From NCBI GenBank assembly GCA_029288805.1, contig JARIGO010000022.1, positions 30,754 to 94,753 of the forward strand: a stretch of 64,000 bases of DNA, given 5' to 3'. Position 1 is the first letter of the stretch, and the number at the start of each line of letters is the position of its first letter. Under the pieces are notes generated by a model, which had not been told where the DNA came from, ran no database searches, and saw only the letters and a list, made by a program, of their open reading frames with translations. This document shows, in pieces, positions 3,219 through 61,307 of this stretch. A program made the position numbers and the translations under genes. Source of the stretch: Candidatus Nomurabacteria bacterium (GTDB lineage Bacteria > Patescibacteriota > Minisyncoccia > Phycocordibacterales > UBA9973).

Positions 3219-4350
3219 ATGCGCTTTTTTGATATCTTGAAACATTTAAGACAATACCGGAAGCAAAGAGGGCGATGGCAAGAGAGGTTCCCCCTTGGGA
3301 GACGAAGACAAGTGGCACGCCGGTTAGTGGAAAGAGTCCGACAAGAGATGCCATATTGAGGAAGGATTGTGAGACGAGCACTGTCACGATACCGACGACA
3401 AGATATTGTCCAAACATGTCTCGAGAATTAATGGCAATTTTGTACCCTCTGATAGCCAGGAAAACATACAACACTACAAGCAATGCACTGCCGATAAAAC
3501 CGAACTCTTCACCAATAACGGCATAAATAGAGTCACCTTGCGGTTCAGGCAAGTAATTGAACTTCTGAACGCTTTGCCCCAGTCCTCTACCGAGTATTCC
3601 TCCGCTACCGATGGCAATAAGACCTTGCTGGAGCTGATATGAGGAGCCTTGTGCATCACTGGAAGGATTGATGTACGTTTTGATACGACTCATGAGGTAT
3701 GGGCGAACGAGTGCCAAAAGCAAAATACCGACAAGACCAACAACAACGATAGAAATAATCTTCTTCCATGACACCCCTGATACGAACAGCATGCTACATG
3801 CTGCGGCAGTGATCAAAATAAGACTTTTGGTATCAGGCTGAAGCAACAATGCTCCGGCAACCAATCCAAGCATGACTGTAAACGGCAAAAGCTTGTATTT
3901 AAATTCCTCTTTTTTCTTACTGGTCCATGCGAGCCATGCTGCAAAGTACGTTACGAATCCCAGCTTTAGTATTTCTGCGGGTTGAAATGATACGCCTGCA
4001 ATTGAAATCCAGCGCCGGGCACCGCCGTGCCTAAACCCTAAGTGCGGAACAAAGACTGACAGTGTTAGCAGTAGCGTAATAATGAAGATAACAAATGCAT
4101 TGTTACGCCAAAAGTGATAGGGGATTTTTATTGCCAACCACAACAACGCCATGCCACCCACGAAACCAAGGACGATCTGGGCAAATAGCACCCCGTAAAA
4201 TTTCGCGTCACTTTGCGCCAGGATACCGAGAGAGGCAGAGACAAAAGAAATAATTCCGATTACGGAAATCAGAATGACAAGGCCAAAAAAGTACGTATCA
4301 AATTGTTTTGGTTTGACGACGACTGACATATTACTTACTAATGATAACAA
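3217..4350 (-). CDS. ftsW: SEDS-family peptidoglycan glycosyltransferase (FtsW/RodA)
   Basis: 377 aa with about 10 TM helices and the conserved C-terminal SEDS block (GGILGRGLGQS...DSIYAVIGEEFGFIG). Lies between murG and mraY. Confidence 0.85.
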   Translation of the reverse strand: MLSLVSNMSVVVKPKQFDTYFFGLVILISVIGIISFVSASLGILAQSDAKFYGVLFAQIVLGFVGGMALLWLAIKIPYHFWRNNAFVIFIITLLLTLSVFVPHLGFRHGGARRWISIAGVSFQPAEILKLGFVTYFAAWLAWTSKKKEEFKYKLLPFTVMLGLVAGALLLQPDTKSLILITAAACSMLFVSGVSWKKIISIVVVGLVGILLLALVRPYLMSRIKTYINPSSDAQGSSYQLQQGLIAIGSGGILGRGLGQSVQKFNYLPEPQGDSIYAVIGEEFGFIGSALLVVLYVFLAIRGYKIAINSRDMFGQYLVVGIVTVLVSQSFLNMASLVGLFPLTGVPLVFVSQGGTSLAIALFASGIVLNVSRYQKSA

Positions 4351-5399: not shown

Positions 5400-5921
5400 C
5401 TATTCTTGATTTAAAAGCGTGGTTATCTTAGCTACAGTTTCGGCGTACTGAGGCAGCTGATCAGTTTGGGAAACACCAAAGTGTTCAAGCAATGCTAATG
5501 TCGGATGATATGTTATTGCACGACCGTTACCTTGAGTTTCAATCAGTCCTCTGATCTGTAATGCACGTAATGAATATGATGCATTAACACCACGGATCAA
5601 TTCTATTTCCGCCTTTGTGGCGCCTGGCTTATAGACGACAATAGCCAATGTTTCTGCACTGGCCTTGCTGAGCTCTTTTTGGAGCTCTTCCTTACGAATA
5701 GTCTCAAGCACCGCACTGAATTCTGGTCGAGTAGCCAAGGTTACACTGTCCCCTTGCCTGACAAGCATCATGGCATGGCCTTCGAAATGTTGTGAAAGTG
5801 TCGCAAGCGCTTCCTCAACAGCTTCCTGAGTAGCATCTAAAAGTTTTGCCAATCCTGAGACAGTATATGAATCAGCAGTTGCGAAAAGAATGCTTTCAAT
5901 TGTGGTTGATAGGTTATTCAT
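5400..5921 (-). CDS. scpB: segregation and condensation protein B
   Basis: Tandem winged-helix ScpB signature (IESILFATADSYTVSGLAKLL ... AIVVYKPGATKAEIELIRGVNASYSLRALQIRGLIE). Start set at the internal MNNLSTT methionine so the gene does not overlap scpA by 77 nt. Confidence 0.8.
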   Translation of the reverse strand: MNNLSTTIESILFATADSYTVSGLAKLLDATQEAVEEALATLSQHFEGHAMMLVRQGDSVTLATRPEFSAVLETIRKEELQKELSKASAETLAIVVYKPGATKAEIELIRGVNASYSLRALQIRGLIETQGNGRAITYHPTLALLEHFGVSQTDQLPQYAETVAKITTLLNQE

Positions 5922-8288: not shown

Positions 8289-8758
8289 CAACTAAACACC
8301 GATGCGTACATGGGGTTTAACGGAACACGATAGCTTGTTTGGCCTTCAAGAGGCATAAACGGCAGATCTTTTTTGGTAACGGTCAATGTTCGCATGGAGT
8401 ACATGGGATCATAAGCACGATGCTCTACAGGATCTTTTTTCTGAAAGTGTGTAAAATGAAGAAGATGGACAACGCCTTTTGGCTCCTCATACAGTAAATG
8501 ATCGAGGGTACGGTTGCATACGACGAAATCTATCGCGTATTTCTTTTCATCTATAAAGACCTTGTAATGAGAACGGCCACCTTTGATCCCGGCCACAACA
8601 ACACCCATAAAAATTGCCAGTCCGGAGAATGGTGTTGCACAAATAGCCATCTCGCCGTCAGTAAAGTGAGGCCATACCTCATTAAATTTGCTTCCACTAC
8701 CGTGAAGCAGGCACTGTTCGTGCAGAACCGCCTTGTTAAGTATCTCTGTATTGTTCAT
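8288..8758 (-). CDS. hypothetical protein, possibly a permuted papain-like (NlpC/LRAT-type) Cys/His hydrolase
   Basis: 156 aa and soluble. His-rich N-terminal segment followed by an AICATPFSG Cys segment. No confident family match from sequence alone. Confidence 0.45.
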   Translation of the reverse strand: MNNTEILNKAVLHEQCLLHGSGSKFNEVWPHFTDGEMAICATPFSGLAIFMGVVVAGIKGGRSHYKVFIDEKKYAIDFVVCNRTLDHLLYEEPKGVVHLLHFTHFQKKDPVEHRAYDPMYSMRTLTVTKKDLPFMPLEGQTSYRVPLNPMYASVFS

Positions 8759-8841: not shown

Positions 8842-9138
8842 ATGCAAATACCCGAAAATGGCTTTTATTACCATTACAAACACGATGAAGCGAAGGGGTT
8901 CAATGATCATGCGTATGAGGTTTTTGGAATAGCCCGCCATACGGAAGAAAAAGGATTCTTGGTGCTATACAAGCCTCTATATGAAAACGATTGGTTTATT
9001 CCTGCCAACTACCAAGCACGTCCTTTGGATATGTTTAATGAAGATGTGATTATTGACGGAAAATCAGTTCCACGGTTTACAAAGATTACTGACCTGGAAC
9101 TGATAGAAAAATTAAAATTAGTCAAAAACACAATATAA
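8842..9138 (+). CDS. DUF1653-family protein
   Basis: 98 aa. The GFYYHYKH ... YEVFGIARHTEEKGFLVLYKPLY ... WFIPANYQARPLDMF ... GKSVPRFTKI pattern matches the conserved DUF1653 core. Confidence 0.65.
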   Translation: MQIPENGFYYHYKHDEAKGFNDHAYEVFGIARHTEEKGFLVLYKPLYENDWFIPANYQARPLDMFNEDVIIDGKSVPRFTKITDLELIEKLKLVKNTI

Positions 9139-11046: not shown

Positions 11047-11083
11047 CAAAAAAGGTCTAGCGAATTATTCGCTAGACCTTTTG
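11047..11083. terminator. bidirectional terminator downstream of the 11086-11667 gene
   Basis: Perfect 12-bp stem GGTCTAGCGAAT-tat-TCGCTAGACC flanked by A-run and T-run. Confidence 0.65.
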
Positions 11084-16614: not shown

Positions 16615-17236
16615 TATGCATAACGACTCAGTCGATCGACTCGCAAAACTCTTTTTGAAATTTCCCGGGATTGGTGAACGCCAAGCCCGTCGTTTTGCAT
16701 ACTTTATCCTGACCCAGCAGGAAGGCTATGTGGATTCGCTTGCGAGAGCGCTTGTAGCAGCGCGCACCCATGCCAATACCTGCGCGCGCTGTCTCCGCAT
16801 CTTCGAAGGCTCTGTAGAATCTTCTGGTGGTCTCTGCAACATTTGTAGCGATGAACACCGCGACCAAAGCAGTATTGTTGTTGTAGAAAAAAGTCAGGAT
16901 ATCGAAAGTTTCAATCGCACTGACTATAACGGCCTCTTCTTCGTATTAAACGGCCTCATTCCTATCGTGCAAAAAGACATCATTGCCGGTACTAATGCCC
17001 AAAAACTTATTGATCGCGTACGAAAAGATACATCTGAGAATGTACTACAAGAAGTCATCCTGGCATTTCCTGTTACTCCAAACGGCGAACATACCGACAG
17101 CGCCATCCGCGAACTGCTCTCACCTATTTCCCTTGACCTAACCATTACCTCCCTCGGCCGCGGCCTCTCTACCGGCGCAGAACTCGAATACGCCGATCCG
17201 GCATCCCTTGAAGCGTCACTTAAAAAGCGAGAATAA
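16604..17236 (+). CDS. recR: recombination protein RecR
   Basis: HhH segment LAKLFLKFPGIGERQARRFAYFIL, C4 zinc finger CARC...CNIC, and a Toprim domain. The start overlaps the dnaB end. Confidence 0.9.
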   Translation: MTSNMHNDSVDRLAKLFLKFPGIGERQARRFAYFILTQQEGYVDSLARALVAARTHANTCARCLRIFEGSVESSGGLCNICSDEHRDQSSIVVVEKSQDIESFNRTDYNGLFFVLNGLIPIVQKDIIAGTNAQKLIDRVRKDTSENVLQEVILAFPVTPNGEHTDSAIRELLSPISLDLTITSLGRGLSTGAELEYADPASLEASLKKRE

Positions 17237-17271
17237 AAAAATCAGGAGGTCGGACCTCCTGATTTTTTTAT
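17234..17271. terminator. bidirectional rho-independent terminator shared by recR and rplU; copy 1 of a repeated palindromic terminator
   Basis: AAAAAAATCAGGAGGTCgGACCTCCTGATTTTTTT; a near-identical copy occurs at 33552-33590. Confidence 0.75.
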
Positions 17272-17628
17272 TTACGCGATAGCGTTAATCTTTACTTTGA
17301 TGTAAGGCTGGCGATGGCCATTCTTTTTCATGTAGCGGCTCTTTTGCTTGTACTTGATAACCGTTACCTTTGGAGCGCGGCCTACAACGACAACTTCACC
17401 ACTTACTACAACCCCTGATACGAGTGGAGTGCCGATAACAGTAGTAGCACCGTCATCTGTAAGCAAAACCTGGTCAAATGACACAGCGTCGCCTTTCTTA
17501 CTTTCTTCCTTAAACTTTTCAATAGTAATAGTGTCGCCTACTGCTACGCGGTACTGCTTGCCTCCAGTCTTAATGACTGCAAACCCTGCCGCTGAGGCCT
17601 TTTTAGTTGTCTTTTTTGTAGTTGCCAT
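17272..17628 (-). CDS. rplU: 50S ribosomal protein L21 with a basic N-terminal extension
   Basis: AVIKTGGKQYRVAVGDTI ... KKNGHRQPYIKVKI matches the L21 signature. Confidence 0.9.
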   Translation of the reverse strand: MATTKKTTKKASAAGFAVIKTGGKQYRVAVGDTITIEKFKEESKKGDAVSFDQVLLTDDGATTVIGTPLVSGVVVSGEVVVVGRAPKVTVIKYKQKSRYMKKNGHRQPYIKVKINAIA

Positions 17629-19912: not shown

Positions 19913-20479
19913 TTAGGCAGCTATATGCCTTAATTCATCATAAATGTCCGGAGCAACCTCTTGAACAGCGGCTTCCCAGGCTTTTACCACTTCCGTTTCG
20001 GCGGCATAATGCTGTTTTGAAAAGTTAAACACCCTGAAAAAGTTATACTTCATATCTTCGGGATAGTTTCTCAAAGAGAGCATCGTGCGGCTGAACATTT
20101 TTTGAGTAGCAAATGCCTCAATGGCAGTTTGTGGATAGCCCATAAATGCTCCATACAAACGATGGTAATGGCTTTTAACAGAAGTTACCTTTGAACCTTC
20201 CTCAACAAGTTTGTAGAAATTTACCATGTTTTCGTAGGTATCGCTGATGCAAACGGTCGCCCTATAAGCGTCACTTACGTTCTTTTCCTTTTTTAGGCAA
20301 TCGCAATGCAACCCAATGGTTCTAAGGGTTCTGAGAACATGGAGCGCAGGATCGTTGTAGGAAAACAAATCAAGTTCCACGCCTGAGCGATATCCTAACA
20401 GCAGTAATACAATCATGGCTTTAGGCTGAGATCCAATGCTTAGGTTCTGCAATAGCTGAATTTTTTCTTTAGTTGTCAT
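19913..20479 (-). CDS. hypothetical protein
   Basis: 188 aa and soluble, with no recognisable motif. Wedged between cysS and lysS. Confidence 0.45.
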   Translation of the reverse strand: MTTKEKIQLLQNLSIGSQPKAMIVLLLLGYRSGVELDLFSYNDPALHVLRTLRTIGLHCDCLKKEKNVSDAYRATVCISDTYENMVNFYKLVEEGSKVTSVKSHYHRLYGAFMGYPQTAIEAFATQKMFSRTMLSLRNYPEDMKYNFFRVFNFSKQHYAAETEVVKAWEAAVQEVAPDIYDELRHIAA

Positions 20480-22006: not shown

Positions 22007-23074
22007 CTATATTCCTTCCTTTTTTAGTTCCTCTATCACCTCCTTGGCATGTTTGGAAAGTTTTTCCGGCAAGGTAATGTTCAACTTCACGATGAAGTTT
22101 CCTCGTTTTGAACCATGAGGTACGCCAAAATGTTTCAACACTACCGTGTCGCCAATCTTAGTACCAGCAGGTACGGCAACAGTCTGCTGACCATCTAATG
22201 TTTCAACTGCATAGGTTGCTCCCAGCAATGCGTCAGTAAGCTTAATAGAAAGCGTGCTGGTAAGGTCGTTTCCATTGCGAACAATTGTCTTATGAGGTGT
22301 CACTGAAACACGGACGTACAAATCTCCTGATGGGCCGCCTTTGATAGCCTCACCCATACCTTGCAAGCGAAGTGTCTCACCGTTTTGAATGCCGGCAGGT
22401 ACTGACACCTTGATAGTGCGAGGTTCATTTACGACACCCTTACCCTTACATGTCTGACATGCTTCATCGGGAATCTTTCCAGTACCGTCACACTTATTAC
22501 AAATCTGTGTAGTAGCAATAGAGCCGAGAATGGTACGCTGTACGCTTTTTACTACACCGTTACCATTACACTGATCACAGGTGTGAAGCTTGGTGCCAGG
22601 CTTTGCGCCATCACCATGACAGGTATTACACGTTGAGGGCTTGGTAATGCGAAGTTCCTTTTCAACGCCAAAGATGGACTCCTTGAAGTCGAGCGCAATG
22701 CTGGTTTGCAAATCCGCACCACGACGATTCTTGGCACGACGACTGCCGCCACCAAACATCTCTCCGAAAATATCGCCCATATCAAAACCGAATCCACCAT
22801 CCTGTGTGAACTGTGAGAAATCAAACCCATCAAAGCCGCCACTGTATCCGCCTCCACCCATTTGTGGTCCCGCGGATCCAAACTGGTCGTACTGAGCGCG
22901 CTTGTTGTCATCAGACAGTATCTGATACGCCTCATTCACTTCTTTGAATTTCTTGTCATCACCGCCATTTTTATCAGGGTGATGCTTATGAGCAAGCTTG
23001 TGAAAAGCCTTTTTGATCTCTTCTTTTGAAGCCTTTTTTTCCACTCCCAAAATATTGTAATAGTCTTTACCCAT
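22007..23074 (-). CDS. dnaJ: chaperone DnaJ
   Basis: J domain (DYYNILGV...HPDKN), G/F-rich linker, and four CxxCxGxG zinc-finger repeats. TATAAT sits 7 nt upstream of the ATG. Confidence 0.92.
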
Positions 23075-23245
23075 ATGTCTAATTATACCATGCAAAACAG
23101 CCGCTAAATGCGGCCGTTTTGCGAGATTTAGCTAATAAGTACGTATTATCGGTGTCGAAGAGAAACTGTCTTCCCTTCTGCCTTTCGCTTTTTCTTTGCA
23201 GCTACTTTGCGCTTCTTGTTCATAGTGCGAACACTATATCACAGA

Positions 23246-25132
23246 CTAGGCAGAAGCGGTAGTGTCTTCTGCGGCCGCATCCTTTGCTTCTCCCTCTGAA
23301 GCCTGCCCTTCCGCTGGCTGAGATTCAGCATTTTGCTTATTCATGTATTCACCGATCTTCTGCATTTCAGTTGAAAGCTCGTGAATCTTTGCCTCGATAG
23401 CCGCCTTGTCTGTACCGTCCTTTGTAGTGCGAAGCTCGGCGATTTTTGCATTCACGCCCGTCTTAATATCTTCAGGAATCTTGTCCGCATTATCCTGTAA
23501 TGCCTTTTCTGCAGTGAAGATATTCATGTCCGCAGTGTTCTTCACGTCAGCAAGCATTTTCTTTTCCTCATCTTCCTTGGCATGCAGTTCCGCATCCTTC
23601 TTCATGCGTTCGATATCATCCGGAGTAAGACCTGATGATGCTTCGATACGAATGGTCTGTTCCTTGCCGGAAGCCTTATCAAGTGCCTTCACGTTCAAGA
23701 TACCGTTAGCGTCAACATCGAATGACACTTCAATCTGTGGCATGCCGCGTGGTGCTGGTGGAATACCATCAAGCACAAAGCGTCCCAAGGACTTATTGTC
23801 AGCCGCCATCGGACGTTCACCCTGCACAATGTGAATTTCCACACTGGTTTGGTTGTCTGAAGCGGTTGAGAAGACCTGTGACTTTGATGACGGGATAGTT
23901 GTATTGCGTTCAATCAGTTTTGTCGCAACATTTCCCATGGTTTCAATACCGAGTGAAAGCGGAATAACATCCAAGAGCAAGACATCCTTCACGTCACCTT
24001 GCAATACACCGGCCTGAACAGCGGCACCGAGTGCTACCACTTCATCAGGGTTAATAGTGAGGTTTGGTTCCTTACCGAAGTACTTCTTCACTTCTTCAAC
24101 GATTTTTGGCATGCGAGTCTGGCCACCAACCAAAATTACTTCGTTGATGTCTGCAATCTTAAATCCAGACGCATCAAGTGCACGCTTTGTGATTTCGATA
24201 GAGCGAGTCACGAATTCTTCAGCCAATGATTCAAGCTGAGCGCGAGTCATTTTGATGAGCAAGTGCTGAGGTCCTGCATCAGTAGAAGTAATGAATGGAA
24301 TGTTGATTTCAGTTTCAAGCGTTGTTGAAAGTTCGATCTTTGCCTTTTCTGCCGCCTCATCAAGACGCTGCAATGCAAGCGGGTCACCCATGACATCAAT
24401 ACCGCTTTGCTTCTTGAATTCACCAGCGATCCAATTCATGATCTTCAAGTCGATATCACGACCGCCCATCATAGAGTCACCGTCAGTAGACTTCACTTCG
24501 ATGACATCATCAGACACTTCAAGAACGGATACGTCGAACGTACCTCCACCAAGGTCGAAGATCACGATCTTTTCATCCTTCTTTGTGTTCAGACCGTATG
24601 CGAGTGCAGCCGCTGTTGGTTCGTTGATGATACGCTTCACATCGAGACCGGCAATAGCTCCGGCATCCTTTGTTGCCTTACGCTGTGCATCGTCGAAGTA
24701 TGCAGGCACGGTGATGATAGCTTCGGTGATTTTCTCACCAAGCTTCGCTTCCACGTCTGCTTTGATCTTTTGCAGGATCATGGCAGATACTTCTTCGGGA
24801 CGGTAATTCTTATCGCCAAGCTTTACTAGAATGCCCCCATCAGGCCCTTTTGAAACCTGAAATGGAGAAGTCTTGATAACTTTATCCATGCCATGGTCGT
24901 CATACTTGTGACCCATGAAGCGCTTAATACCATAAATAGTATTCTGCGGATTGGTAATAGCCTGACGCTTTGCGAGCAAGCCAACAAGAATGTCGCCGTT
25001 CTTACCTTGCGCCACAATAGAAGGCGTTGTGCGTGCCCCTTCAATATTTTCAATAATTTTTGGCTGTCCACCTTCAATGATGGCAACAGCTGAGTTTGTA
25101 GTTCCTAAGTCAATTCCGATTATTTTAGCCAT
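23246..25132 (-). CDS. dnaK: chaperone DnaK (Hsp70)
   Basis: 628 aa. [18 protein letters not shown] and all Hsp70 signatures are present. Confidence 0.97.
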
Positions 25133-25218
25133 ATTATGTTTAAAGAATTACGTTATTAATTTCAGTTTAAATTCAGTACTAATCTGTATTTCCTAAGTCA
25201 GTCCTTTCTATTGAATTT

Positions 25219-25259
25219 ACAAGTATAACGTAGTTATACTTGTATTCCGCGATCGCGAA
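25219..25259. promoter_or_regulatory. two adjacent palindromic operator-like sites in the dnaK / PaaX-like divergent intergenic region
   Basis: A 25-bp perfect inverted repeat ACAAGTATAACGtAGTTATACTTGT at 25219-25243, then a CCGCGATCGCGG-like palindrome at 25246-25259. Neither matches CIRCE or HAIR consensus. Confidence 0.4.
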
Positions 25260-25303
25260 ATACATGTTGATAGTATACCAATCTTCTGATACTATGCAAG
25301 TAT

Positions 25304-25849
25304 ATGGAACAGAGAAAACCCAAACCAAACTATTCAAAGAGAATATTGGCTCTTTTGGGTAACAAACCTGCTATTTCTATAGCCGATTTAGAGGAAAATC
25401 TTATATCCTCGCTCACGCTATCTAATGCTAAGCATGCGCTAAAGCGCTCGCTTAGAGGCCTAGAAGAGGCAGGATTGATCGAAACCCACCATTCTGGACA
25501 GCAGACCTATTCCCGCCTGACGCGTGAAGGTAAACGCAAGGCATACAGCATTAGTCTGGATCATGAAAATACCGTTTTTAACCCGGCATGGGACGGCAAA
25601 TGGCGCATTGTCCTGCTCGACCTTTCCGAAGACCGCAAATCAGAACGCGAAGGCCTCCGTTATCTCCTCAAAAAAGCCGGCTTTATGTTGCTCAAAAATT
25701 CTGTTTGGATCTCCCCGTATCCGTTCGAGCATCTTTTTATGAACATCAAAAAAGACCTCGGGCTAACAACAGAACTAATGATCTTTGTGACAGATACATT
25801 AGACCCGGAAACAGAAGCAGCCTTTACTGAATTATTAAATCGTCTGTAA
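25304..25849 (+). CDS. compact PaaX-like winged-helix transcriptional regulator
   Basis: 181 aa. The N-terminal wHTH (RILALLGNKPAISIADL...LEEAGLIETHHSGQQTYSRLTREGKRKA) and the C-terminal WDGKWRIVLLDLSEDRKSEREGLRYLLKKAGFMLLKNSVWISPYP match the PaaX N- and C-domains. Confidence 0.5.
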   Translation: MEQRKPKPNYSKRILALLGNKPAISIADLEENLISSLTLSNAKHALKRSLRGLEEAGLIETHHSGQQTYSRLTREGKRKAYSISLDHENTVFNPAWDGKWRIVLLDLSEDRKSEREGLRYLLKKAGFMLLKNSVWISPYPFEHLFMNIKKDLGLTTELMIFVTDTLDPETEAAFTELLNRL

Positions 25850-25923: not shown

Positions 25924-26247
25924 ATGTCTACAATAGTAAATAATCCGAATGGAACGAGTGATAATGGAAACGGTCTTGGTGTCCTCTTGGTAATCATTGT
26001 AATTCTTATAGTAGGCTTTCTTATTTACCGATTTGGCTTTGCTTCAAGCAGAACATCAGCTACGCCGTCTACCATTAATGTCAGCGTTCCTGACAACTCT
26101 AGTGGCAACGGATCCGGCGGAAGCTCCCCTGCCCAGCCGCAGAGTAGTACCACTACCACACAGCAAACCAGCACTCAGCCTTCGACTTCAAATCCAGCAC
26201 AGCAGACCAACAGCACTTCAAGTAGCACAACTACCACTACGCACTAA
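25924..26247 (+). CDS. hypothetical membrane-anchored Ser/Thr/Gln/Pro-rich low-complexity protein
   Basis: 107 aa. One TM helix (LGVLLVIIVILIVGFLIY) followed by an S/T/Q-rich tail. Confidence 0.4.
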   Translation: MSTIVNNPNGTSDNGNGLGVLLVIIVILIVGFLIYRFGFASSRTSATPSTINVSVPDNSSGNGSGGSSPAQPQSSTTTTQQTSTQPSTSNPAQQTNSTSSSTTTTTH

Positions 26248-26257
26248 TCACCAGAAT

Positions 26258-26293
26258 AAAAATCTCCGAGAGTTTAACTCTCGGAGATTTTTA
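26258..26293. terminator. bidirectional terminator between the 25924-26247 gene and grpE
   Basis: ATCTCCGAGAGTT-taa-CTCTCGGAGAT hairpin followed by TTTTTAT. Confidence 0.7.
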
Positions 26294-26297
26294 TATG

Positions 26298-26918
26298 CTA
26301 TTTAACTTTATATACTGACACTCTCGCTGCTCGCAATACGGTATTGCCCAATTTGTACCCCTGCTGCAAGACTGCAGAGATTTTGTGTTCGAGTAATGCG
26401 TCAGTGGTTTCTGTTTCAGACACTGCTTCATGAAGCGCAGGATCAAAGGTTTCCCCTACCGCACCAAAGGCTGTGAAGTTACGATCCTTCAATACCGTCA
26501 TAAGCTGCTGATAGATGTATTCCACACCAGTGCGCCAGTTAGCATCAACTTTCTCCCATGCTTCCTTATTGCTCATAGCCATAGAGAAACTATCGACAAC
26601 CGGTATCAATTCCTCAATAAAATTTTCCTCTATCAAGCCGCGCATGCGCTTACGATCCTCTTCCTGGCTTTTCTGCAGGTTGGCATAGTCCGCACGTGAA
26701 CGCTGCCAGCCATCCAGGTACTCCTGCTTTTCTTTTGTAAGCAGAGCGATTTTTTCTCTGAGATCCTTCGTCTTCTTGGCACCTCCGAGGGCATTTCCCT
26801 CCTCATCGCTCGCCTCAAATACCATATCCGCATCCTGGTCAATTTCCGTATGGGTAGCCACGTTTGGCGCCTCAATCTCGTCTGATTGCACTACTGAATT
26901 GTATTCATCGTCTTTCAT
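26298..26918 (-). CDS. grpE: nucleotide exchange factor GrpE
   Basis: GrpE C-terminal signature (LIPVVDSF ... QQGYKLGNTVLRAARVSVYK). Start moved to MKDDEYN because a TATAAT box lies 7 nt upstream of that ATG, inside the longer caller ORF. Confidence 0.85.
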   Translation of the reverse strand: MKDDEYNSVVQSDEIEAPNVATHTEIDQDADMVFEASDEEGNALGGAKKTKDLREKIALLTKEKQEYLDGWQRSRADYANLQKSQEEDRKRMRGLIEENFIEELIPVVDSFSMAMSNKEAWEKVDANWRTGVEYIYQQLMTVLKDRNFTAFGAVGETFDPALHEAVSETETTDALLEHKISAVLQQGYKLGNTVLRAARVSVYKVK

Positions 26919-26925
26919 ATGGTTG

Positions 26926-26931
26926 ATTATA
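26926..26931 (-). promoter_or_regulatory. -10 box (TATAAT) 7 nt upstream of the grpE ATG
   Basis: Minus-strand sequence ttttgTATAATcaaccatATG. Confidence 0.4.
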
Positions 26932-26940
26932 CAAAAAAGC

Positions 26941-26990
26941 ACAAACAAAAACACCCCTTTCGGGATGTTGTTTGTTTTTAACGCTTTGAC
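26941..26990 (-). terminator. terminator of the rpsI-containing r-protein transcript
   Basis: Minus-strand RNA ACAUCCC-GAAA-GGGGUGU stem with a tetraloop, followed by UUUUUGUUUGU. Sits just upstream of the grpE promoter. Confidence 0.4.
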
Positions 26991-27376
26991 CACTGTGGGG
27001 CCTTGCGAGCTTTCTTGAGACCGAACTTGCGGCGTTCCTTTGAACGAGGATCGCGCTTGAGGAATCCTTCCTGCTTGAGCTTTGTCTTGTCAGACTCATC
27101 CTCTACAACGAGAGCACGAGCGAGACCGTGACGTACAGCTTCTGCTTGAGAGTGGATACCACTGCCCTTTACGTGTACAGATACAGCGTATGCCTTATCT
27201 GCAATCTTGAAAGGATCAGTAACGATCTTTTGCAATTCTTCTGTTGGGAAGTATGTAGCAAGATCCTTATCGTTGATCACATAGCTGGCCTTGGTAGCTG
27301 CACTGATGCGTACGCGTGCAGTTGCAGTCTTACGTCGTCCAATTGTTTCTGTATATTGTTTCTTTGTAGTAGCCAT
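26978..27376 (-). CDS. rpsI: 30S ribosomal protein S9
   Basis: 132 aa. The C-terminal ...KKARKAPQWSKR is the S9 hallmark. Confidence 0.93.
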   Translation of the reverse strand: MATTKKQYTETIGRRKTATARVRISAATKASYVINDKDLATYFPTEELQKIVTDPFKIADKAYAVSVHVKGSGIHSQAEAVRHGLARALVVEDESDKTKLKQEGFLKRDPRSKERRKFGLKKARKAPQWSKR

Positions 27377-32354: not shown

Positions 32355-33512
32355 TTATATCAATCGTTCAATAAAAAGCGCGCCGAGTGCCAAGCCGGTA
32401 TCAGGTTGCTCCATGCTGATAACCTTTATAGAGGATGAAAGGTTAAGAATGTCCACAAAATGCACATCAATCTCTGAAACGGCTGCGCTATGCAGTAAGA
32501 ACGGATCGGTACTGATAGTTTGACTAAATACATTTTCAAAGCGATGGTCAGACACAACATAGCAATCCGAAGGAAATCGCACGCTGGTATTGCCTTGATC
32601 AACAAGCGCATGAAAACCTTTCTGCCAGGTAGCGGAAAAAGACTGTAATGCTTTTTCAATAACACGACCGTTATTTGGAGAAAGTTTCTTAAGGCGGTAT
32701 GCCTCCACCAATGTGCGGGCTTCCATAAGACTGCCAGTCACATTGCTCAATGTGCGATAGAGTTCATATGTACCAACTGGAAATGACTGTTGGGAAATAA
32801 CAGCACTGTTTTTTACAAATGCCACATCCGTCACTTCTTCACCAACATCAACGATGACGCAATCCTTGGCAATGCCGCCATTGTCACGAAGAGCCACGAA
32901 TGCAGCGTATGAGCCAGTGGTAACCTGTATCTTTCGATCACCATAGCTCCGGCGCAGGATACTGGTAAAGCGTTCTGCTACAACCTTTGGTATAAGCGTG
33001 ACATGGAGGACGATTTCAAGCGATTGCACTTTTTTGCCATACGGATCGGCAGTTTCATAGCCATTCAACAGCACATGCGAGAGTTGCTGTTCAGCCAACG
33101 CAAACGTATCTCCAAGCTTTTGATTGTCACCGTCAGGCTGTTTCAGCAAAAAGGCAATTTCCTTTTCAATAAGCGAGTCAACAAGACGCTGCGTGCATGA
33201 AAATGCCGTTGCTCTGTTGTATGTAATAGTGCGCGTGTAGGAGTTATACCACGGTGAACCCAATACTACCTGAATCATGGAAGGATGGTGCACATCCGCA
33301 GTGCGAACATGCTGTATGACGGTTTCCAATGTCTTGGCAGTGTCCTCAACAAAGCGCTCTATGGTTATTTCTTCCTCAAGACCGCTATCACGACGTTCTT
33401 GTACAAGGATAGTGACAGAATTTTTTCCATCGACGTGTTCAACCAATGCATGCGCACCACCAACACTACTCGAACTAATATCAAAGACAGCAACTGCAGT
33501 GCTTTTACTCAT
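32355..33512 (-). CDS. actin-like ATPase-fold protein (PilM/FtsA-like ASKHA family)
   Basis: 385 aa. The N-terminal VAVFDISSSSVGGA phosphate-1-like motif and CVIVDVGEEVTDVAFV phosphate-2-like motif are typical of the FtsA/PilM/MreB fold. Confidence 0.5.
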   Translation of the reverse strand: MSKSTAVAVFDISSSSVGGAHALVEHVDGKNSVTILVQERRDSGLEEEITIERFVEDTAKTLETVIQHVRTADVHHPSMIQVVLGSPWYNSYTRTITYNRATAFSCTQRLVDSLIEKEIAFLLKQPDGDNQKLGDTFALAEQQLSHVLLNGYETADPYGKKVQSLEIVLHVTLIPKVVAERFTSILRRSYGDRKIQVTTGSYAAFVALRDNGGIAKDCVIVDVGEEVTDVAFVKNSAVISQQSFPVGTYELYRTLSNVTGSLMEARTLVEAYRLKKLSPNNGRVIEKALQSFSATWQKGFHALVDQGNTSVRFPSDCYVVSDHRFENVFSQTISTDPFLLHSAAVSEIDVHFVDILNLSSSIKVISMEQPDTGLALGALFIERLI

Positions 33513-33551: not shown

Positions 33552-33590
33552 ATAAAAAATCAGGAGGTCCGACCTCCTGATTTTTTATGA
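33552..33590. terminator. terminator after alaS; copy 2 of the repeated palindromic terminator
   Basis: AAAAAATCAGGAGGTCcGACCTCCTGATTTTTT; this is the reverse complement of the 17234-17271 copy. Confidence 0.75.
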
Positions 33591-42590: not shown

Positions 42591-43625
42591 TTATTTCTTT
42601 GCAACCGTATAGGTGCCGTTATCGAGCTTGGTAAAGTATTTTGCGTTCTGAAGATTTACAAGAATTGTATTCTTCTTGAGGAAACGTTCCTTAAGTACGC
42701 GATCAACAACTTCTTCCTTTGTCATTGGGCCTTCCTTAACCAAAATTTCCTTGATGACGTCACGAACCACACCTGGTTTGTAACCCCATTCAGCCAAGGC
42801 ATAGTAGCCGCGACCAACAAGCACGAAGCGAGGGTCTTTGATCAATTCATTGTGAGTAGTTGCAATGTGAGTCTTGCGACCGAATGTATCAACGATAGCC
42901 TTTGCCACTTCACGGAAGTGCATTGGAGAGCCATGCTTACGCATCATGAGGAATGCATAGTCCTTGATACCGCGAGTCTTGATATTTTGTGACTGAGCAG
43001 GACCCCATTCGCCCAGGGGGTTAACGCCGATCTTCTTTGAGATATTCAACCAACGACGAGCAATTTCCTCGTTTTTGTACTGAGCAGCTACGCCTTTCAA
43101 TTCATCAAGAAAACGAGTTACGAGGTCATCCTGACTGAGCAATTCCTTGTCATCAAGACTCTTGTATACGCGATGAAGGGCACTGTGAATAACTTCTGAC
43201 AATTCCTCATCAACAGTCCAGCGAGTTTGGAAGTGGTCGTCTTCCTTGAGCTTTTTGAACTCGTCACCGAGTACCATATAAAAACGAATGTGGTTTTGCA
43301 CTGACTTATCCTTAGACACATAAGAAAGGAAGTCGTCTTCATGGACCATGGCGCCCATAGCTTCTACCAAGCCTTTGAGTTCAGTAAATACCTTGTGTTC
43401 AGCCTTAAACGCATCGCTTTTGCGAATGGCAGCAAGAGCCGCGTTTTCGATTTGACGAACGCGTTCACGAGTAATGCCATATTTCTTTCCGATTGCCTCA
43501 AGCGTCTTTGAATCCGCATTGTCTTCAAGACCATAGCGGTTGACGATGATGTCATGCGCGCGGTCCTGCAAATTTGAGAGCAGGCGCTTGCTGACTTGTT
43601 TAGGTTTAAAACTGATAGTTGCCAT
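42591..43625 (-). CDS. two-HTH protein: N-terminal sigma-70 region-4-like domain fused to a C-terminal HARE-HTH winged helix
   Basis: Residues about 14-68, RAHDIIVNRYGLEDNADSKTLEAIGKKYGITRERVRQIENAALAAIRK, follow the sigma70_r4 consensus. Residues about 225-300, GSPMHFREVAKAIV...IATTHNELIKDPRFVLVGRGYYALAEWGY, follow the HARE-HTH consensus found in RNAP delta. Confidence 0.5.
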   Translation of the reverse strand: MATISFKPKQVSKRLLSNLQDRAHDIIVNRYGLEDNADSKTLEAIGKKYGITRERVRQIENAALAAIRKSDAFKAEHKVFTELKGLVEAMGAMVHEDDFLSYVSKDKSVQNHIRFYMVLGDEFKKLKEDDHFQTRWTVDEELSEVIHSALHRVYKSLDDKELLSQDDLVTRFLDELKGVAAQYKNEEIARRWLNISKKIGVNPLGEWGPAQSQNIKTRGIKDYAFLMMRKHGSPMHFREVAKAIVDTFGRKTHIATTHNELIKDPRFVLVGRGYYALAEWGYKPGVVRDVIKEILVKEGPMTKEEVVDRVLKERFLKKNTILVNLQNAKYFTKLDNGTYTVAKK

Positions 43626-61236: not shown

Positions 61237-61266
61237 CAGTATTAGACTGTAATTCGAAAAAGTAAA

Positions 61267-61307
61267 AAGCCTTATAACGTAAGGCTTTTTACTTTTCAAA
61301 AAGATTA
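61267..61307. terminator. long bidirectional hairpin between tRNA-Val and the GC-rich ORF
   Basis: AAAAGTAAAAAGCCTTA-taacg-TAAGGCTTTTTACTTTT, a stem of about 17 bp. Confidence 0.6.

Follow-up and report, generated by a model that had tools for sequence, protein, structure and literature searches.

A candidate PaaX-like repressor of dnaK-dnaJ and its proposed palindromic site in a Candidatus Nomurabacteria genome

We analysed a window of 64 kb, the whole stretch taken from contig JARIGO010000022.1 of a Candidatus Nomurabacteria bacterium, in which the chaperone gene dnaK is separated by a short spacer from a divergently transcribed gene for a PaaX-like protein of 181 amino acids (aa), hereafter the regulator. 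Based on comparative sequence analysis, we consider it likely that a dimer of this mini-PaaX protein binds a 30-bp palindrome at positions 25238-25267 of the spacer, which we refer to as the operator, and represses dnaK and dnaJ. Comparison with 80 related loci from species-representative genomes of Ca. Nomurabacteria/Paceibacterota (795 kb; 859 kb together with the window), all of them from a single deep lineage of the candidate phyla radiation (CPR), showed that the putative site, the predicted promoter and the pairing of the two genes are conserved. These observations suggest a new type of dedicated chaperone-gene repressor in an ultra-small Paceibacteria/CPR bacterium and, since the regulator-operator pair is defined to the base pair in mostly uncultured organisms, they provide a directly testable handle.

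The conserved putative operator and the predicted dnaK promoter

Inverted-repeat searches and anchored alignments of the dnaK-regulator spacers brought out one recurring element, with the consensus TtACAagTATTTCGCGG-TCGCGAAATACTTGT. A position weight matrix (PWM) of 34 nt, built from 74 sites of the relatives, found exactly one site of at least 27 bits in 79 of the 80 loci, always in the dnaK-regulator interval, the sole locus without a site (L041) being one whose upstream DNA is lacking in the sequence. The window operator scored 40.3 bits, against a median of 42.7, and no further site of at least 18 bits occurred in the related loci or elsewhere in the window. A preliminary description of this DNA had reported two palindromes in the spacer, a perfect 25-bp inverted repeat followed by a second one, and both are indeed present, the first as a perfect hairpin and the second as the core of the operator, which reads CCGCGATCGCGA and not CCGCGATCGCGG as given there. 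The conservation in relatives that the same description had proposed as a check was found for the CGCG-centred 30-bp palindrome and not for the perfect repeat.

Across 72 distinct operators, the core TTTCGYG-RY-CRCGAAA displays invariant G/C, T/A and C/G pairs, the arm on the regulator side (right) is much better conserved than the left one, and uncompensated mismatches occur in 15-29 of the 72 at pairs 5 and 9-12. At the centre, the dinucleotide reads GT or AC, that is, the same non-palindromic step in either orientation, the AT of the window being exceptional. Taken together, the invariant bases, the unequal conservation of the arms and the uncompensated mismatches speak for a sequence-specific site in DNA and against an RNA stem. 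A copy of the half-site core, the TGTATTTC box, is located in the predicted dnaK leader and is kept, in alignments of close relatives, as (C)TGTATTTC or TAGTATTTCTAC; its distance from the operator is 12 nt in relatives devoid of the perfect hairpin and about 50 nt in those that have it, and it could represent a third half-site.

On the regulator side of the operator, the minus strand, read across all loci, brought out a near-consensus sigma-70 promoter directed towards dnaK, of the form TTGACA(T)-N16-18-TATA(C/A)T. The motif TTGACA-N16-18-TATAAT was matched at 11 or more of its 12 positions in 60 of 79 loci, as against 2 of 1580 shuffles, and the distance from the end of the -10 box to the operator centre ranges from 19 to 24 nt across loci. 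These conserved boxes predict a dnaK transcription start at about 25265 and a leader of 133 nt, and hence an operator spanning about -2 to +28 of dnaK, which would be a classical position for steric repression. In most loci the -35 sequence TTGACAT is the reverse complement of the regulator start (ATG TCA A, Met-Ser; e.g. L006, L014 and L020), this overlap lying about 45-52 nt to the right of the operator centre, and many homologues start with MS; one 7-bp stretch is therewith both a putative promoter element and a translation start. The dnaK -35 box is kept even where inserted genes displace the regulator. We also considered a dnaK promoter on the left side of the operator, whose left arm would contain the -35 box, and rejected it, as this arrangement appears only in a subset of more distant lineages and its position is occupied by the hairpin in the window.

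That dnaK-dnaJ should have a promoter region of its own in this spacer had been proposed in the preliminary description, on the grounds that grpE is cut off from dnaK by two plus-strand genes and a terminator. The layout bears this out: the regulator gene, a 107-aa open reading frame (ORF) and a strong hairpin at 26256-26294 intervene, so that the dnaK promoter cannot come from grpE, and the conserved dnaK-directed promoter lends further support. The dnaJ gene is probably co-transcribed with dnaK. For the regulator itself, a possible promoter could be drawn on the plus strand, with a putative -35 box that abuts or overlaps the right arm of the operator and an ATG located 8 nt past the -10 box; the regulator mRNA is possibly leaderless or nearly so.

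The regulator, its pairing with dnaK and its proposed role

The sole Pfam match of the regulator is PaaX_M (PF20803), a central Cas2-like domain, at residues 94-172 (E = 6.8e-20; 71 bits against a cutoff of 24). The Pfam model of the PaaX N-terminal domain did not match, nor did PaaX_C, the protein stopping at residue 181, straight after the Cas2-like domain, and the PaaX equivalog model TIGR02277 gave 45.4 bits, below its cutoff of 264.55. An AlphaFold (AF2) model computed from 33 homologues (predicted local distance difference test score 84.7) shows a winged helix at residues 10-72 (H-H-H-beta-beta) followed by a beta-alpha-beta-beta-alpha-beta domain. Its top PDB match in Foldseek, across both domains, was PaaX of E. 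coli W (8a39; E = 1.5e-5, 180 columns), followed by the PaaX-like protein 3l09 of Jannaschia and Rv0674 of M. tuberculosis (3kfw). A PDB search with the sequence returned only weak, generic winged-helix matches, the kinship with PaaX being seen via the fold search. Based on the Pfam and TIGR results, the model and the fold match to 8a39, the regulator is, as modelled, a minimal PaaX relative that retains the DNA-binding and dimerisation modules without an inducer-binding domain. Thus, the PaaX-like winged helix of the preliminary description stands, while its "PaaX C-domain-like module" has to be replaced by PaaX_M.

Homologues of the regulator form 2022 clusters at 90% identity, the top matches bearing names being metagenome-assembled genomes (MAGs) of Paceibacterota/Patescibacteria. 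Their conservation is unusual: at an overall identity of 56-80%, their Cas2-like half is almost invariant, with the near-invariant motif LRYLLKKAGF...KNSVWISPYPFEHLF.NIKKDLGL. In a library clustered at 50% identity, 20 representatives were recovered at E <= 1e-30 and 1215 at E <= 1e-10, which identifies the dnaK-linked proteins as a tight subfamily within a large family whose proteins share this architecture and measure about 180-200 aa; the members examined came from CPR-type MAGs and metagenomes. Our reading would give a first probable function to one subfamily of this large, unannotated family of small PaaX_M proteins.

In about 76 of the 80 loci, dnaK lies divergently upstream of the regulator gene, with grpE and rpsI downstream on the opposite strand. 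Four more divergent orthologues stay linked to chaperone genes after rearrangement: (i) in L212, dnaK is beside the regulator with neither grpE nor rpsI nearby, (ii) in L208, a grpE-x-x-dnaK operon is paired with it, and (iii) in L213 and L214, it faces a grpE-dnaK-dnaJ operon of which grpE is the first gene. Where inserted genes part the regulator from the operator (L030, L060 and L065), operator and promoter stay at the head of the dnaK-side unit, and no second operator was found near the displaced regulator in these three loci. A slightly more distant relative, P0135 (E = 3e-36), is located between a tRNA synthetase gene and rsmA/ksgA, with no link to dnaK. Since relatives of this type adjoin unrelated genes, the association with dnaK is a property of the subfamily and not of the whole family. 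An association of the family with unrelated neighbours, which the preliminary description had named as speaking against its proposal, is therefore seen for the distant members and not within the orthologous group.

Accessory genes were found repeatedly inserted between dnaK and the regulator (L060 2370-2908, L076 1388-2122, L030, L053 and L065). By eye, the inserts include a HicA/HicB-like pair in L060 and, in L076, an IS200/RayT-like transposase apparently co-transcribed with the regulator, and the spacer looks like a hot spot for insertions. Separately, the spacer that parts the grpE-dnaK operon from the regulator in L208 is unusually long, with 584 nt, and holds, at about 3560-3900, three direct copies of TTGTCATTCTGAAT and two inverted ones (ATTCAGGATGACA), which could be a small repeat element or an array of binding sites.

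We also scanned metagenomes with the operator core, a search independent of any protein query. Among the matches listed, mostly unrelated GC-rich sequences, there was one true dnaK locus (L150), and, again among these, the core stood beside PaaX_M paralogues of 28-33% identity in L115, L146 and L166. These paralogues are of about 205-245 aa and have a hydrophobic N-terminal segment. On their side, the palindromes are extended and perfect, built on a ATTTCGCG-NN-CGCGAAAT core (L115 at 1492, L146 at 8221). In L115, the paralogue and rsmA/ksgA stand on either side of the palindrome; in L166, the paralogue gene has an identical 42-bp copy on each side (8354-8371 and 9029-9046), and a further copy of the L166 palindrome occurs in L181 (6392), near the contig end and with no adjacent homologue visible. 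Since the same core adjoins paralogues of such low identity in different gene contexts, proteins of the winged-helix/Cas2-like architecture would appear to recognise TTTCGCG-N2-CGCGAAA, and this is the strongest computational argument that we can offer for recognition. If true, the family binding this core, which comprises 1,200 or more clusters at 50% identity, would be a major regulatory family in reduced CPR genomes. The operator PWM can serve to read chaperone regulation from metagenomes. The core scan also repeatedly matched CAGCTGCAATTTCGCGGCCGCGAAATGGCGCA in unrelated contigs with a GC content of 53-57% (L085, L093, L097, L100 and more than 40 other metagenome loci); it presumably belongs to another lineage, as a conserved coding sequence or a repeat.

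The preliminary description had put forward the divergent PaaX-like gene as a dedicated repressor of the chaperone genes, and the gene pairing together with the conserved palindrome makes it a strong candidate. Bound to the operator, the regulator dimer would occupy the stretch from about -2 to +28 and keep transcription of dnaK-dnaJ from initiating. It would probably also repress its own gene, as proposed from the fact that the operator abuts the -35 region of the overlapping, opposite promoter of the regulator. Binding, repression and the transcription start are what we infer here. How the genes would be derepressed can be suggested only with low confidence, the most likely candidates being an intrinsic sensitivity to temperature or folding, or titration by the DnaK system in the manner of HspR; titration or thermolability is favoured in view of the missing ligand domain and the extreme conservation of the dimerisation domain. 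The conserved Cas2-like domain could itself be the sensor, through titration by DnaK or unfolded protein or through thermal unfolding.

A first alternative, which we hold improbable, is that the protein binds the operator and regulates only itself, or is an activator or dual regulator, and that its adjacency to dnaK is inherited gene order. It would be in keeping with the origin of all loci from one lineage, with the operator also abutting the putative -35 box of the regulator and with the common autoregulation of small transcription factors. However, the site overlaps the start of a near-consensus promoter directed towards dnaK, it goes with dnaK and not with the regulator when the two genes part, and the pairing outlasts rearrangements that add grpE or lose the ribosomal neighbours.

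Several observations nevertheless weigh against repression through this operator. The -35 box is weak in the clade of the window (TTGCAT, matching 3 of 6), while most relatives have TTGACA, and a sigma-70 promoter directed towards the regulator scored no better than shuffles across the relatives. In addition, the most divergent dnaK-linked orthologues have AT-rich sequence in place of the CGCG core, the outer TTGACAAGT(A/T)TTT...ACTTGT arms persisting. As all loci come from one deep CPR lineage, the shared gene order may be partly inherited and not selected. Finally, when operator columns were compared with regulator residues, the mutual information was spread throughout the protein, a sign of phylogenetic confounding, and co-variation of operator and regulator was discarded as evidence.

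The perfect hairpin beside the operator

The perfect 25-bp inverted repeat of the preliminary description, ACAAGTATAAC-GTA-GTTATACTTGT, is exact at 25219-25243 and extends by one pair to the 12-nt arms listed in Table 1, where it overlaps the operator. Among the 13 perfect inverted repeats of the window, it alone sits in a divergent promoter region. It was found in five lineages only (the window, L201, L204, L012 and L009), always abutting the operator core, and is absent from L207, the closest homologue (80% identity), and from L001-L007. Over these five lineages there are four stem sequences (ACAAGTATAAC, ATGAATGTTGC, ATAAGTGTTAC and ATAAGTATAACG), in which each of the 55 pair cells is Watson-Crick, with changes on both sides in 6 of the 11 pairs, a result that no shuffle or slid register came near. 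Since pairing remains perfect despite these changes, selection acts on the stem itself.

The hairpin is predicted at about +22 to +48 of the dnaK leader and is most simply read as part of it, perhaps with an effect on mRNA stability. The stems contain no G-U pair at all, and for this reason a role at the DNA level, or maintenance by template switching, is also conceivable. We considered an intrinsic terminator or attenuator as well and rejected it, no U-run following the hairpin on either strand. At the hairpin position, L034 harbors another lineage-specific palindrome, CTTGGGTGTCGGACACCCAAG (5900-5920), which is HAIR-like with 2 mismatches.

A second alternative carries the RNA view over to the operator itself, which would act as a 5'-terminal hairpin of the dnaK mRNA, through stability, processing or temperature-dependent translation, and would not be bound by the protein. 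With the predicted start, the entire palindrome would indeed fall within the dnaK leader, this leader RNA folds with a stable hairpin beside that of the operator, as two adjacent hairpins (z = -2.6), and the neighbouring lineage-specific stem shows compensatory evolution. We give this possibility little credence, however, as the many mismatches of the operator are uncompensated and its arms are conserved as sequence, and unequally so; furthermore, some 100 nt separate it from the start codon of dnaK, its core recurs next to paralogous regulator genes in neighbourhoods of an unrelated kind, and no Rfam family matched in the dnaK leader. Very unlikely, too, is that the perfect repeat at 25219-25243 serves as the main protein operator, alone or with the second palindrome, as the preliminary description would have it: although it is perfect, unique of its kind in the window and next to the operator, and although its outer bases in the window (ACAAGTAT) are similar to the outer arm of the operator consensus, its restriction to five lineages and the variation of its stem under perfect pairing fit selection on a stem and not a fixed recognition sequence, and the conserved site is the 30-bp palindrome.

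Known heat-shock control and the wider locus

To our knowledge, the control of chaperone genes in bacteria is known only through sigma-32, HrcA with CIRCE (controlling inverted repeat of chaperone expression), HspR with HAIR (HspR-associated inverted repeat), CtsR and RheA. The CIRCE element (TTAGCACTC-N9-GAGTGCTAA) had no match within 3 mismatches in the window and the 80 loci (859 kb). HAIR (CTTGAGT-N7-ACTCAAG), searched within 2 mismatches, was absent from the window; in the 80 loci, HAIR-like matches were limited to L022, at a distance from the operator, and to L034, in the form of an additional palindrome next to the operator. For the CtsR box (tandem GGTCAAA), a single match with 2 mismatches was obtained in the 859 kb, in L047 and not at dnaK. 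The palindromes of the spacer are thus unlike the CIRCE and HAIR operators, in agreement with the preliminary description. That these searches brought up no competing element at dnaK, the HAIR-like palindrome of L034 apart, speaks for the proposed repressor. No HrcA domain was detected among the 21 window ORFs scanned, and neither the window nor the 80 loci contain groEL, groES or clpB. We found no report in the literature of a PaaX-like regulator of dnaK, nor of chaperone regulation in CPR/Patescibacteria.

HspR, known from Actinobacteria, Helicobacter and Campylobacter, belongs to the MerR family and is encoded by the last gene of the dnaK operon. The predicted logic here is like that of HspR/HAIR, namely a dedicated, autoregulated repressor beside dnaK and an inverted repeat on the dnaK promoter, but the protein is of PaaX_M and not of MerR type. 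HrcA, for its part, is a winged-helix repressor that acts on dnaK and grpE via a palindrome, and the regulator likewise faces grpE-dnaK-dnaJ in divergent relatives; in contrast to hrcA, which is the first gene of its operon, the gene described here is divergent, and grpE of the window lies outside the reach of the operator. Overall, the logic is as in HspR/HAIR and HrcA/CIRCE; what differs from both is the family of the protein, the operator and the way in which the promoter is arranged.

PaaX is the phenylacetyl-CoA-responsive repressor of the paa operons, which acts by steric hindrance of RNA polymerase and is also autorepressed; its operator in E. coli is TGATTC-N27-GAATCA (PMC9493321). The two proteins have a common fold over the winged helix and the Cas2-like dimerisation domain; however, the PaaX chain in 8a39 has 305 residues and the regulator lacks the inducer-binding C-terminal domain. 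The operators differ as well, TTTCGCG-N2-CGCGAAA within a compact 30-bp palindrome being only loosely similar to PaaX in its half-site and entirely different in spacing, and PaaX adjoins paa genes whereas the regulator adjoins the chaperone genes dnaK, dnaJ and grpE. Without the C-terminal domain, with a score below the cutoff and with another operator and other neighbours, the regulator fails to qualify as PaaX proper. More tentatively, Paceibacteria may control their DnaK system through a family of ligand-domain-free, minimal PaaX repressors that would be new to stress genes, a generalisation that we regard as possible and somewhat short of probable.

The coordinates of the locus are compiled in Table 1.

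Table 1. Features of the dnaK-regulator locus, in positions of the 64-kb window
Feature	Positions	Strand	Remarks
dnaJ	22007-23095	-	Pfam DnaJ, DnaJ_C, DnaJ_CXXCXGXG; 3' of dnaK
dnaK	23246-25132	-	NCBIfam NF001413, E 3e-275; predicted target gene
dnaK/regulator divergent spacer	25133-25303		171 bp
TGTATTTC box	25185-25192		copy of the operator half-site core in the predicted dnaK leader; complementary to 25257-25264
Perfect hairpin palindrome	25218-25244		TACAAGTATAAC-GTA-GTTATACTTGTA, 12-nt arms; first palindrome of the preliminary description
Operator (putative)	25238-25267		imperfect 15+15 palindrome ACTTGTATTCCGCGA-TCGCGAAATACATGT, 87% complementary; family consensus ACAAGTATTTCGCGR-YCGCGAAATACTTGT
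Operator core	25248-25257		perfect CGCGATCGCG; second palindrome of the preliminary description
Possible regulator promoter	25267-25295	+	TTGATA-17-TACTAT, 9/12 match with TG
Predicted dnaK -10 box	25272-25277	-	TATACT; position conserved
Predicted dnaK -35 box	25294-25299	-	TTGCAT; 16-nt spacer
Regulator gene	25304-25849	+	181 aa; PaaX-like
107-aa ORF	25924-26247	+	membrane-like, poorly conserved
Bidirectional terminator hairpin	26256-26294		18-pair stem, between grpE and the regulator unit
grpE	26298-26993	-	Pfam GrpE, E 8.8e-38

The grpE gene ends a block of rpoA-rplQ-rplM-rpsI and overlaps rpsI by 16 nt (26978-26993). The operator PWM found no site near grpE in any locus, and grpE is without an operator of its own in the lineage of the window.

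Elsewhere in the window, two minus-strand ORFs of 385 aa (32355-33512) and 188 aa (19913-20479) had no Pfam match, and a 344-aa protein (42591-43625, minus strand) displays an unusual architecture, with an N-terminal Sigma70 region 4 and a HARE-HTH domain. The window is also far richer than expected in perfect inverted repeats whose arms reach 11 nt or more, 13 being observed against 0.1 expected per window; their arms measure 11-20 nt, as at 11050-11082, 17232-17272, 26256-26294, 33552-33588 and 61258-61296. Of the 12 others, those compared with the ORF list are found at the ends of ORFs or close to them, in keeping with terminators of long perfect stem in this genome.

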